DNA of 40,078 nt from a virus (IMGVR_UViG_2671181094_000008:1-40078); one strand, 5' to 3'. Counted from the first letter of the stretch, positions 30,339 to 33,612 are shown. Notes: a model not told the origin generated them from the sequence alone. Numbers and translations: made by a program.

Positions 30339-31037
30339 ATGAAAAAAGAAACTCTTGCAGATCGTTTAAACGAGGCCATGGCTTCGGCTGGAATGTCACA
30401 AGGGGCGCTTGCGAAGGCCTCAGGTATTGCTCAGCCAACCATTTGGCGCCTGGTGAGTGGAAACGCCAGGGGTTCAACAAAAATTGTCGAGATAGCTAAT
30501 GCTTTGGGCGTCAGGTCTGAATGGTTATCAACCGGAAATGGACCGATGCGCGATGACGGCCAGCTCCCTCGCGCTGCCCAGGTTAAAAGCCAGGATACTG
30601 ATGCATTCAGGATTGATGTGCTGGACCTTATGGTTAGTGCCGGGCCGGGCATCGTGAACCAGGAGTTCGTCGAGATTCTCCGTTCTGTTGAGTATGAGCC
30701 AGCTGAAGCCCGGCACATGTTCGATGGGCGTAAGGCTGAGAACATCCGGATCATCAACGTCCGGGGCGACAGCATGTCTGGGACGATTGAGCCGGGTGAT
30801 CTGCTGTTCGTCGACATCAGCGTTAAGAGCTTCGACGGCGACGGGATATACGCCTTCCTGTACGACGACACTGCTCACGTCAAGCGCCTGCAGAAGATGA
30901 AGGATAAGCTGCTGGTTATCTCAGATAACAAGAGCTATGCCCCTTGGGAACCGATCGAGAAAGATGAGATGAATCGGGTGTTCGTGTTCGGCAAGGTGAT
31001 CGGCAGCATGCCGCAGACGTACAGGAAGCATGGGTAA
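30339..31037 (+). CDS. CI-like repressor (HTH plus S24 LexA-like autopeptidase domain)
   Basis: N-terminal HTH, C-terminal GDSMSG (Ser nucleophile) and VKRL (Lys); divergent from cro. Start MKKETLADRL chosen over the upstream ATG to leave room for the operators. Confidence 0.85.
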   Translation: MKKETLADRLNEAMASAGMSQGALAKASGIAQPTIWRLVSGNARGSTKIVEIANALGVRSEWLSTGNGPMRDDGQLPRAAQVKSQDTDAFRIDVLDLMVSAGPGIVNQEFVEILRSVEYEPAEARHMFDGRKAENIRIINVRGDSMSGTIEPGDLLFVDISVKSFDGDGIYAFLYDDTAHVKRLQKMKDKLLVISDNKSYAPWEPIEKDEMNRVFVFGKVIGSMPQTYRKHG

Positions 31038-31059
31038 AGCCTTAGCACACAGAGGAAGC

Positions 31060-31179
31060 ATGTCTGATCTGATTATCCCAATACTCATTACTTTGCTGAT
31101 TATCGGGCTGGTTGGGATCGTGCTCAGGCTAGATAAGATTTTCTTCAAGCGAAGGGATGAGCGGGATGACTTTGAATAA
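31060..31179 (+). CDS. Small hydrophobic membrane peptide (39 aa), absent from the ORF track
   Basis: MSDLIIPILITLLIIGLVGIVLRLDKIFFKRRDERDDFE: one TM helix and charged tail; GAGG 4 nt upstream of the ATG; 22 nt downstream of the cI stop. Confidence 0.4.
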   Translation: MSDLIIPILITLLIIGLVGIVLRLDKIFFKRRDERDDFE

Positions 31180-31304
31180 GCCAGACCGGTAGTTCGATGT
31201 GTTTTTGGTAATGCCGAAGACGTACAGGAAGCATGGATAGCCAGCCAGTGGCCTGACAAGGTGTTTGGGTGATGAGAAGATAGCAATAACTTAGAGGCTT
31301 AAAT

Positions 31305-32069
31305 GTGATCAGAATAGGAAGGTTACTACCTGGCGGCATTGCAATTGACGAAGGGCAACATCACCCGATAAAGGGCGTTGCTCTTTTGATAAAAGAAAAT
31401 AGCGAACCAGAAGAGATTGTTGTTTTTGCAAAAGAAATATCTTCTAGGAGCATTTCTATAGAAATAACCTGCGCAGCCTTGGGAAGAGCTCTATCCCTGC
31501 CTATACCCGAGCCAGTACTACTGTTTGACAGCTCAAACAAAGCATTTTTTGGTAGTGTTGATGCTACCTATCCGAGTTTCATGAAGTATGTTTCTAACTC
31601 TTCAGATCAGGCCGTTTCTGATGCTTTGGCATCATGGCCGTTATTGAAAAAAGCTAGCTATTTTGATGAGTGGATTGCGATGGATGACCGTCACAACGGA
31701 AATTTGCTTTTCAATGGTGATGGTTTCTTCCTGATAGACCATGAATCGGCAATTCCCCAAGGTCTTGCCCCTGACCTTTTCGGGATAGATTATTACTCCA
31801 ATCAATTGCTGCAGGTAGCAACTTACATACTCGATAGAAGTAATGATATAGCCGTTCAGATGATGGCAAATGAGGCGAGAGCTTGGACCATGTCTTGCAA
31901 GAGTAACACCCTAACGCTATTAGATGGAGAGATATCCGAAACAGTTCAAGGTAAAGAGAAAAATCAAATAATGTCTTTCCTTTCATCTAGAATTGAGTTA
32001 CTAGGAGACATTCTTTATGATCAAATCAAGCCCCAACAAACACAGATGATATACGATGCTAAATCTTGA
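31305..32069 (+). CDS. HipA / PI3-4-kinase-like fold protein
   Basis: GTG start with AGAGG 8 nt upstream; catalytic-loop-like DRHNGNLLF and downstream FFLIDHES; AT-rich; co-oriented downstream of cI. Confidence 0.5.
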   Translation: MIRIGRLLPGGIAIDEGQHHPIKGVALLIKENSEPEEIVVFAKEISSRSISIEITCAALGRALSLPIPEPVLLFDSSNKAFFGSVDATYPSFMKYVSNSSDQAVSDALASWPLLKKASYFDEWIAMDDRHNGNLLFNGDGFFLIDHESAIPQGLAPDLFGIDYYSNQLLQVATYILDRSNDIAVQMMANEARAWTMSCKSNTLTLLDGEISETVQGKEKNQIMSFLSSRIELLGDILYDQIKPQQTQMIYDAKS

Positions 32070-32937
32070 TCAGCTTCTTAAGTCAGCTCCTGCTATGCCT
32101 GCAACATCAGGGCGCTGGGCATCTGTTTATCTTGAACCAATGATCGGCTCAGGAGAGCGGCTCACGGTAGCAGTTGCCACGATAACATCATCTGGTGAAA
32201 TTTTAGTTAAGCCGGCAATCAGAAAAGAAGTTATAGAAGCTATGTATGGCTTCAAAGCACCAGCATTTATCAATGTGGTTGATCTGATTTTGTCGAGTTT
32301 GAAGTTGCATCTGGCTGCTAAGGGGGATTTCGTATCATGGCATCCTCCAGTTACAGGCGTCACTATAAGCGCCGTAAGGAATGCTGCGTCATCAAGCCCT
32401 GTTGGCATACTCCGCCAAGCGGTATCATTGTCATCGAGTTTGTCATCACTCCTTGAGGCTGAAGAAGATTCCGATGGGTTGCCAGCTAAGCAATCAAGAA
32501 CTAAAGACAGGTGGCCAATTCAAATCTTTGATGCGGTTATCAGCGCTGACGGACGCAGGGATATTTTTTTCAATAGAAGCTTCACCTTTAGTGATGGACA
32601 CAGACCGGCTAAAATTTTCTATCTAAGCGATCATGCAGCTATCAACACCGGAAAACTGTTACCCCACAACTTGAATGAGCAGGTTAAGGATGGAAAAGCA
32701 AAAATATCTGACTTATCAATGATAAAAAGGCAAGGCGATATTTTTCCAAGAGAAACTCATCAAATGATTATCTACAAACCGGAAGATGATAGCCCTGCAT
32801 ACAATGATAGGCACATAGCATCAATAAATAGTGCGTACCTTTCTTTACAGGACTTGGCTAACACCTACGATGTATCAATCACTTCTGTAAGCACTGCCGA
32901 GCATGCAGCAAGGTTAATATTGCAAACTGCAGCATAA
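32056..32937 (+). CDS. Hypothetical protein, translationally coupled partner of the kinase-like gene
   Basis: 293 aa; start overlaps the upstream gene by 14 nt; no motif I recognise; AT-rich. Confidence 0.5.
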   Translation: MLNLDQLLKSAPAMPATSGRWASVYLEPMIGSGERLTVAVATITSSGEILVKPAIRKEVIEAMYGFKAPAFINVVDLILSSLKLHLAAKGDFVSWHPPVTGVTISAVRNAASSSPVGILRQAVSLSSSLSSLLEAEEDSDGLPAKQSRTKDRWPIQIFDAVISADGRRDIFFNRSFTFSDGHRPAKIFYLSDHAAINTGKLLPHNLNEQVKDGKAKISDLSMIKRQGDIFPRETHQMIIYKPEDDSPAYNDRHIASINSAYLSLQDLANTYDVSITSVSTAEHAARLILQTAA

Positions 32938-32973: not shown

Positions 32974-33177
32974 CTACTCTTCCCTCAGCATCAGCACGTC
33001 CAGCGCCAACTCCACAGCCAGATCGACCTGGTCTTCCTGCCACAACACCTGAATCATCTCTATCAGCGCCTCTCTTGATGGCTCGCGCCTCTCAACCAGC
33101 AGCTGCATAACCGCTATCCCGATGACCTGCGCAATCTGCGGGTGCATCTCTGCGAAAAACTCATCCTCATTCGACAT
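32974..33177 (-). CDS. Small acidic hypothetical protein, convergent with the cI operon
   Basis: Start MSNEDEFFAEMHPQ chosen; gene begins at the edge of the OL-like operator region. Confidence 0.4.
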   Translation of the reverse strand: MSNEDEFFAEMHPQIAQVIGIAVMQLLVERREPSREALIEMIQVLWQEDQVDLAVELALDVLMLREE

Positions 33178-33289
33178 GGCGCTACCCTTTTTGGCGTTTT
33201 TTTGAGCATAACAGCACAATAGGAAAAAATAAATTCATTTAGCTATCAATGATTTAATAGCAATAGCTATCAAATAATAACAATACGTA

Positions 33290-33397: not shown

Positions 33398-33505
33398 ATG
33401 ATCCGCGAAGAAGACAAGCCTGCATGGCGTAATTTTTGGTTAAAGGTCGTTCCGTTTTTGGTTGCTGTTCTCGCAGTTAGCTATCCGTGCTGGGGTGGCA
33501 AATGA
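33398..33505 (+). CDS. Small membrane peptide (35 aa), first gene after pL
   Basis: MIREEDKPAWRNFWLKVVPFLVAVLAVSYPCWGGK; AGGTGA 6 nt upstream; ATGA overlap with the next ORF; not in the ORF track. Confidence 0.35.
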   Translation: MIREEDKPAWRNFWLKVVPFLVAVLAVSYPCWGGK

Positions 33506-33612
33506 GCAAACAAGGCATTCGTTCACTGATTTACTGCCTGCTGATCTGCGGCGTTATCTGGTCGGCTGTTGTTATCAAAATTCTGCACGTTACGGGGGTG
33601 TTCAATGGCTAA
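33502..33612 (+). CDS. Small membrane peptide (36 aa)
   Basis: MSKQGIRSLIYCLLICGVIWSAVVIKILHVTGVFNG; overlaps both neighbours; not in the ORF track. Confidence 0.35.
   Translation: MSKQGIRSLIYCLLICGVIWSAVVIKILHVTGVFNG

Follow-up and report, generated by a model that had tools for sequence, protein, structure and literature searches.

A conserved 39-codon gene behind the cI repressor of Klebsiella-type lambdoid prophages, predicted to encode a single-pass membrane peptide

Directly behind the cI-type repressor gene of the virus studied here lies an open reading frame (ORF) of 39 codons. On balance, we take its product to be an autonomous single-pass inner-membrane 'moron' protein of 39 amino acids (aa), which would be co-transcribed with cI and carried as a unit of about 200 bp; its specific phenotype is left aside in this reading. 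In what follows, the window is the whole stretch of viral DNA that was analysed (40,078 nucleotides, IMGVR_UViG_2671181094_000008:1-40078). The features to which the text refers are these:

30339..31037, + strand: cI-type repressor gene (HTH and S24/LexA-like C-terminal domain), upstream gene of the peptide operon
31008..31037, + strand: direct repeat copy 1, the last 30 nt of cI (atgccgcagacgtacaggaagcatgggtaa); left module boundary, exactly where the ORF-minus alleles join in the alignments
31051..31056, + strand: Shine-Dalgarno sequence AGAGGA, whose GAGG core ends 4 nt upstream of the ATG
31060..31179, + strand: 39-aa peptide gene, product predicted N-out/C-in with one transmembrane (TM) helix at about residues 4-24
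31180..31210, + strand: 3' spacer of the module, 31 nt (gccagaccggtagttcgatgtgtttttggta); mean pairwise difference 0.013 among 44 variants
31211..31240, + strand: direct repeat copy 2 (atgccgaagacgtacaggaagcatggatag); right module boundary, 27/30 identical to the cI 3' end
31241..31277, + strand: linker (ccagccagtggcctgacaaggtgtttgggtgatgaga), found directly after the cI stop in ORF-minus phages, ahead of variable cargo
31305-32937, + strand: downstream cassette, a weakly HipA_2-like kinase and a phrog_21150 protein

Results

The ORF and its signals

The preliminary description of this DNA reported a short ORF with a Shine-Dalgarno-like GAGG behind cI. It was found as described, from the ATG at 31060 to the TAA at 31179 on the + strand, with the GAGG 4 nt from the ATG; the product read from the sequence is MSDLIIPILITLLIIGLVGIVLRLDKIFFKRRDERDDFE. 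A gap of 22 nt separates it from the cI stop codon (TAA, 31035-31037). The upstream gene matches PHROG 4, 'transcriptional repressor' (E=9.6e-69), its homologues carry cI/LexA family annotation, and in relatives the open frame spans 232-256 codons. Its start is probably the ATG at 30339, the ORF listing opening the frame at a TTG (30276).

An alternative in-frame ATG at 31030, overlapping the cI stop, would yield a 49-aa form. Since this ATG is missing in 16 of the 85 loci compared below, we do not regard the 49-aa isoform as the conserved product. The 39-codon ORF keeps its GAGGAAG motif and its ATG in all 85, and the 39-aa product is therefore the conserved one.

A Shine-Dalgarno-like motif followed by ATG, (C)AG(A)GGAAGCATG, occurs three times in the region: at the cI end (31021-31033), at the peptide start (31050-31062) and in repeat copy 2 (31224-31236), where it opens a mini-ORF of 7 codons, MDSQPVA. 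The three copies may be translational coupling signals, or simply a product of the repeat.

Selection acts on the plus-strand reading frame

Within 9 kb, 119 ORFs of at least 25 aa were counted, so that an ORF of 39 codons is not significant by itself, and the question had to be decided by comparison with relatives. DNA searches detected the peptide segment in Klebsiella phages and in about a dozen E. coli prophages. In IMG/VR, a pattern search gave 129 stretches in which a relative of the peptide is encoded. From these, 80 loci were taken, and the comparative set comprised 85 (the window, L001-L004 and L005-L084).

Every locus of the set carries the ORF intact, and 33 distinct DNA variants of it are represented. 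Variable sites are concentrated at the third codon position (9, 4 and 23 at positions 1, 2 and 3, respectively; chi-square p=3e-4). The Nei-Gojobori pN/pS ratio is 0.11 in the peptide frame; shifting the frame gives 1.24 and 2.64. Among distinct single-base variants, 28 are synonymous and 15 nonsynonymous, where 84 and 267, respectively, were possible (binomial p=1.2e-8). Conservation of the ORF in related prophages, a point raised in the preliminary description, is thus evident.

Breaks in similarity between loci point the same way. In phage ST974-OXA48phi18.2 (L002), similarity starts exactly at the Shine-Dalgarno motif of the peptide gene, and in 29 of the 85 loci a mosaic junction falls at the peptide stop codon or within about a dozen bases after it. 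Mosaic boundaries respect the plus-strand peptide gene. On this comparative evidence, the 39-codon ORF is almost certainly a real coding gene.

Part of the conservation must be credited to recent spread or recombination, because the non-coding flanks are less diverse than the synonymous sites: mean pairwise difference is 0.022 in the upstream spacer (31038-31059) and 0.013 in the downstream one (31180-31210), for a pS of 0.20 in the ORF. The low diversity of the spacers could result from extra constraint, or from homogenisation by recombination.

A minus-strand ORF crosses the same region (30921-31286, 121 aa), and it might be proposed that this is the real gene and the plus-strand ORF its shadow. 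The antisense frame shares wobble positions with the peptide ORF, is open across it in 85/85 loci, and has a pN/pS of 0.20, a value to be expected from the wobble-aligned relationship of the two frames; in one GenBank record (L002), a minus-strand CDS is annotated at this position. However, the antisense ORF overlaps 117 nt of cI coding sequence, its stops and its extent differ from locus to locus (0-7 stops across the 369-nt span), and where the mosaic junction falls at the plus-strand stop codon, other sequence takes the place of its 5' part. These three observations led us to discard the 121-aa ORF. Its start codon is moreover a TTG, the lower pN/pS is that of the plus strand, and the junctions respect the plus-strand gene, so that the shadow explanation is hardly credible.

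A 203-bp module bounded by copies of the cI 3' end

Relative to alleles lacking the ORF, the window carries an insertion of 203 bp, whose two limits are marked by the cI 3' end, present as a direct repeat of 30 nt. Repeat copy 2 corresponds to a remnant cI end with the TAG stop that is found in the ORF-minus alleles. It is present in 56 of the 85 ORF-plus loci; the other 29 are those with the junction at or just after the stop codon. No significant RNA structure was detected in the 3' spacer (31180..31210).

In the prophages of E. coli OW1E2 and DY612, whose cI has a different C-terminal domain, a remnant of the window-type cI end precedes the peptide gene. This implies that a block composed of cI end, Shine-Dalgarno sequence, ORF, spacer and cI end moves as a whole. 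Judging from the alignments, the peptide gene and its Shine-Dalgarno sequence travel as a presence/absence unit of about 200 bp, bounded either by the repeats or by mosaic junctions at the stop codon. The 30-nt repeats would be substrates for its gain and loss by homologous recombination. An origin of the 173-nt insert by tandem duplication of the 3' region of cI, followed by divergence, was considered too and rejected, as similarity was no better than with shuffled sequences (score 20 versus 18.2±2.2).

The peptide gene and the cargo assort independently

Upstream of the peptide gene, five different types of cI DNA-binding domain were found. Downstream, there are about 30 cargo architectures, and none in 10 loci. 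The cargo includes RexA/RexB (E=1.7e-109 for RexA), a KilA-N/BstA-like protein, three distinct HipA_2-like and DUF3037-like pairs (PDC-M66A/B), DUF6932 (PDC-M63A), ParA-like AAA_31 ATPases, an AAA_21/HEC-04 ATPase, DUF6414, and HigBA-like and PIN proteins, these last two recognised by eye only. On the far side, between the cargo slot and the PL region, lies an 81-aa gene (32974-33219, - strand; phrog_3946, E=4e-39, unknown function). This gene, transcribed against the direction of cI and PL, is the conserved flank that closes the hotspot on the right; loci of the L005 type carry a truncated copy.

In the window the slot is filled by the two-gene cassette. Its kinase-like protein matches Pfam PF20613 below the cut-off (E=9.6e-6) and, weakly, the PADLOC family PDC-M66A (E=2e-6), whereas the peptide matches no PADLOC family; the phrog_21150 protein has no Pfam match. 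RefSeq labels the second gene of the analogous pair in E. coli OW1E2 as DUF3037, and two other, clearer HipA_2 and DUF3037 pairs (PDC-M66A/B) fill the same slot in relatives. The cassette is a candidate defence system.

The peptide gene had been put forward as a possible third component of this cassette, to which it is adjacent and co-oriented in the window, and which resembles the PADLOC candidate system PDC-M66. The distribution of the two contradicts this proposal. Thirty-four ORF-minus IMG/VR loci show the cI end (…YRKHG-TAG), then linker and cargo, without the peptide gene. Three of the loci without it (L102, L111 and L116) carry the window cassette, both proteins being 100% identical to those of the window. 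E. coli ECCRA-119 and JNQH497 (L085, L086) likewise pass from the cI end directly to linker and cargo; they carry the same two-gene cassette behind cI, as matched by gene lengths, and in ECCRA-119 also by a near-identical 5' DNA flank. At least eight cargo types were found both with and without the peptide, at 97-100% identity. Because cargo types occur in both states, and the peptide occurs with about 30 cargo sets or none, peptide and cargo assort independently, and obligate co-occurrence of the peptide with the two cassette genes is not observed. We regard the peptide gene as very probably independent of the HipA-like/DUF3037 cassette, and a role as its third component as extremely improbable.

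The predicted product is a single membrane helix with a charged tail

AlphaFold, run with the family alignment, returned a single helix over residues 5-38 (mean pLDDT 81; block means of 88 for residues 1-10 and 96 for residues 11-20). The highest Kyte-Doolittle score of a 17-mer is 3.06, and the C-terminal tail is basic and acidic (DKIFFKRRDERDDFE). The single-TM architecture with a charged C-terminal tail, first noticed from the sequence alone, is in line with these predictions. The helix is nearly invariant and tail positions 31-36 vary, with the DDF(E/D) end kept; invariant residues include P7, T11, G16, G19, K26, F28, F29, K30 and F38.

According to the positive-inside rule, the positively charged flank of a TM helix lies on the cytoplasmic side. 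All basic residues of the peptide are C-terminal to the hydrophobic stretch, and the topology should thus be N-out/C-in, with about three residues in the periplasm. With 39 aa, one predicted helix and a pN/pS of 0.11, the peptide resembles bacterial small membrane proteins, which have 50 aa or fewer and a single TM helix and are under selection as proteins.

The ORF most simply belongs to the cI transcript

A scan of both strands, region 30900-31400 included, detected neither a sigma-70-like promoter nor an intrinsic terminator in the interval from cI to the ORF or in that from the ORF to the cassette. The peptide gene is thus most simply placed on the cI (PRM/PRE) transcript, which agrees with its earlier assignment to the lysogenic cI transcription unit. 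RNA structure in the peptide region was not better than in shuffled sequences (z=-1.18). In eight loci with the L005-type junction, among the ten devoid of cargo, folding revealed an 8-bp GC hairpin followed by a U-run directly after the ORF; the consensus terminator scan did not flag it.

Genes downstream of cI are strongly expressed in lysogens (PMC8585504). The same position holds rexAB in λ and bstA in BTP1, and the interval from cI to N is known as a hotspot of mosaicism (PMC8585504). Co-transcription with cI would lead to continuous production of the peptide in the lysogen. Taking the structural model and this setting together, we consider it likely that the peptide is a membrane protein expressed in the lysogen.

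A narrow family, widespread in Klebsiella

The exact peptide was found on at least 1000 public contigs under the label 'hypothetical protein', in Klebsiella pneumoniae, the Klebsiella/Raoultella group and some E. coli, and disruptions of the gene are rare. A protein homologue search, for which the 49-aa extended frame served as query, returned close variants in K. variicola, K. aerogenes and E. coli. The ORF had been described as unannotated. This holds for the RefSeq/PGAP records examined, which omit it, but not for the GenBank phage record MK448231, where it is annotated as a hypothetical protein (QBP28361.1), nor for the contigs that list it under the same label.

A profile search of 1.84 billion cluster representatives gave 9 clusters only, all of the same narrow family, and hence no distant relative whose function could be carried over. 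In PHROGs, the sole match was phrog_5266, of unknown function (E=0.023). No family was matched in Pfam, PADLOC or NCBIfam, the last searched with both the 39-aa and the 49-aa forms; a PDB sequence search gave one noise match (E=4.3), and an Rfam search of the peptide region gave no match at E<=1. A pattern scan of genome contigs matched 12 stretches, none of which was confirmed by tblastn. Searching the literature on the BstA locus, on Klebsiella prophage hotspots, on small membrane proteins and superinfection exclusion, and for the peptide string itself, we found no description of the peptide, nor its sequence in any paper of the library searched.

Against phages, tblastn with the peptide gave no match, though 9 Klebsiella phage records contain the ORF according to the DNA search. 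The tblastn result must therefore be an artefact, probably of low-complexity masking. For plasmids, tblastn gave no match either, a weak negative because the same search missed the known copies in phage records. In one protein (P0052), the first 20 residues of the peptide are fused to the C-terminal part of the phrog_3946 protein; a rearranged variant hence exists somewhere.

Other tiny TM ORFs in the immunity region

Several other short ORFs encoding hydrophobic peptides were encountered in this region. In the slot behind cI, L010 and L080 encode a 32-aa YoaK-family protein (NF033821, E=3.6e-14, above the curated cut-off) at about +195 nt from the peptide ATG; in L110, a YoaK-family protein starts 12 nt past the cI stop, so that the slot is filled in this way with and without the 39-aa gene. 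In nine loci (L022, L028, L029, L062, L079, L081, L090, L100 and L112), a hydrophobic ORF of 23 aa (MREYLIVGVVTLLSVVAIVLMVA) takes its GAGG and ATG from the linker; that ATG is also there in the window (31273-31284), where it opens three codons only, ATG AGA AGA TAG. In L032, L034 and L094, additional tiny TM ORFs form an array of three (25, 33 and about 27 aa), two of which (25 and 28 aa) are present in L099. With a YoaK-family protein and several other tiny TM ORFs in the slot, prophages of this lineage seem to place a small TM peptide behind cI repeatedly.

Just behind the putative PL promoter, ORFs of the same tiny TM type were found at 33398-33505 (+ strand, MIREEDKPAWRNFWLKVVPFLVAVLAVSYPCWGGK, 35 aa) and 33502-33612 (+ strand, MSKQGIRSLIYCLLICGVIWSAVVIKILHVTGVFNG, 36 aa). 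Among the 85 loci, 75 have the first intact and 69 the second, in several allelic forms; neither has an NCBIfam match, and pN/pS of the second is 0.52.

Discussion

What the peptide may do

The peptide gene stays on the cI side of the hypervariable defence hotspot that extends from cI to PL, whatever cargo follows. As predicted, the protein would expose a three-residue N-terminus to the periplasm and its basic/acidic tail to the cytoplasm, and the near-invariant helix (P7, T11, G16, G19) may bind a conserved partner in the inner membrane, in the manner of other small membrane proteins of bacteria. The likeliest benefit would be to block or dampen superinfecting phages at a membrane step; we rank such interference first because the gene sits at the edge of a defence hotspot. 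An exclusion-type function is possible, and we propose it tentatively. Strong purifying selection fits a conserved host target, and is not specific to phage exclusion. With only three residues predicted outside the membrane, the peptide cannot act in the periplasm in the manner of Sp, Imm or Sie2009.

A rather doubtful but still serious alternative is a small membrane protein of lysogenic conversion, tuning a host transporter, a sensor or the envelope, with no role in exclusion. Size, single TM helix and conserved helix face do resemble those of chromosomal small membrane proteins, a YoaK-family member fills the same slot in relatives, and a pN/pS of 0.11 is easier to reconcile with a conserved host target than with a phage arms race. 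Against such a modulator speak the position of the gene at the edge of a locus otherwise full of anti-phage cargo, and its restriction to prophages, as suggested by the plasmid search and the 9 clusters among 1.84 billion representatives. Greater difficulties face the idea of a membrane-active toxin (type I-like, abortive-infection or holin-like) that, on reaching a higher level, for instance upon induction or infection, would depolarise the membrane. In architecture only, the hydrophobic helix with its charged tail recalls the Hok, Ldr, TisB and Fst peptides, and the conserved Gly residues could support oligomerisation. Yet the gene lies 22 nt behind cI, in a constitutive lysogenic operon and with a strong, unstructured Shine-Dalgarno sequence; no antisense promoter-like site, Rfam antitoxin RNA or significant mRNA structure (z=-1.18) was found, and 29 loci are replaced from the stop codon on, so that no conserved 3' antisense gene exists there. 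The frequency of the peptide, on at least 1000 contigs with rare disruptions, also speaks against a toxin, a role which we hold to be unlikely.

It is more improbable still that the peptide itself is irrelevant, and that the ORF is a cis-acting or hitch-hiking element, such as a ribosome-loading or anti-polarity leader for the expression of any cargo behind cI, or an arm for recombination in cargo exchange. Its location immediately 5' of an exchangeable cargo slot, the flanking repeats, which are obvious recombination substrates, and the very conserved non-coding flanks would all suit this explanation. Selection at the amino-acid level (pN/pS 0.11; 28 versus 15 variants, p=1e-8) is nevertheless unexpected for a leader whose sequence does not matter. 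Moreover, ten loci have the ORF without any cargo to serve, eight of them (L005-type) with the terminator-like hairpin behind it, and 34 loci have cargo in place without the ORF. Our preferred reading remains that of an autonomous membrane protein. A wider idea, to which we would give only a small chance, is that the repertoire of 23-39 aa TM peptides found after cI, in the same slot and after PL is an unrecognised class of prophage 'micro-protein' effectors, active in the inner membrane, that exclude or sense phages. Its most widespread member would then be the 39-aa peptide, possibly a generic membrane partner that enhances diverse cargo without being required by it.

Implications

Under the label of a hypothetical protein, the peptide was already present in public databases. 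Klebsiella pneumoniae is a priority pathogen and a target of phage therapy. The contigs with the exact peptide, at least 1000, are mostly from this species, and the operon that holds the gene is probably, among those of the prophage, the one most highly transcribed in the lysogen. If the peptide does exclude phages or alter the physiology of the envelope, a very common determinant of phage susceptibility would so far have been ignored. Together with the cI-end repeats, the gene also marks the left edge of a defence hotspot (RexAB, BstA-like, HipA_2/DUF3037, PDC-M63, HEC-04, ParA-like), a landmark usable to mine new cargo. The hypothesis of a three-gene system is removed by the independent assortment described above.

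Comparison with known systems

With λ rexAB and BTP1 bstA, the peptide gene shares its genomic position in the cI operon and presumably the same promoter, and RexAB and BstA-like genes lie directly behind it in relatives. No homology links the peptide to RexA, RexB or BstA, and it is present whichever of them follows, and also alone: rexAB and bstA are exchangeable cargo, whereas the peptide gene is a conserved flank of the hotspot.

Type I toxins (Hok, Ldr, TisB, Ibs, ShoB, Fst) have in common with the peptide a short hydrophobic helix and a charged terminus. The peptide differs in having no detected antisense RNA or promoter, repressive mRNA structure or Rfam match, and in being placed for constitutive co-expression with cI.

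The superinfection-exclusion proteins P22 SieA, T4 Imm and Sp, Sie2009 and HK97 gp15 are closer in setting. Like them, the peptide is prophage-encoded, predicted in the inner membrane and expected to be expressed in the lysogen; like lactococcal Sie2009, it is encoded next to the repressor. It is much smaller than these proteins and essentially devoid of a periplasmic domain, and no homology to known Sie proteins was detected in PHROGs, Pfam, PADLOC or NCBIfam.

The last comparison is with small membrane proteins of at most 50 aa (YoaK, AcrZ, MgtS, MgrB), of which YoaK is an accepted member in E. coli (PMC10470546). The peptide differs from these in matching no curated small-protein family and in its prophage-restricted, extremely narrow distribution. 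It shares with them a length of about 30-50 aa, one TM helix and short termini, and, as often happens to such proteins in annotation pipelines, it is left out of RefSeq/PGAP records. Among known kinds, the peptide is most like a small membrane protein of this class.
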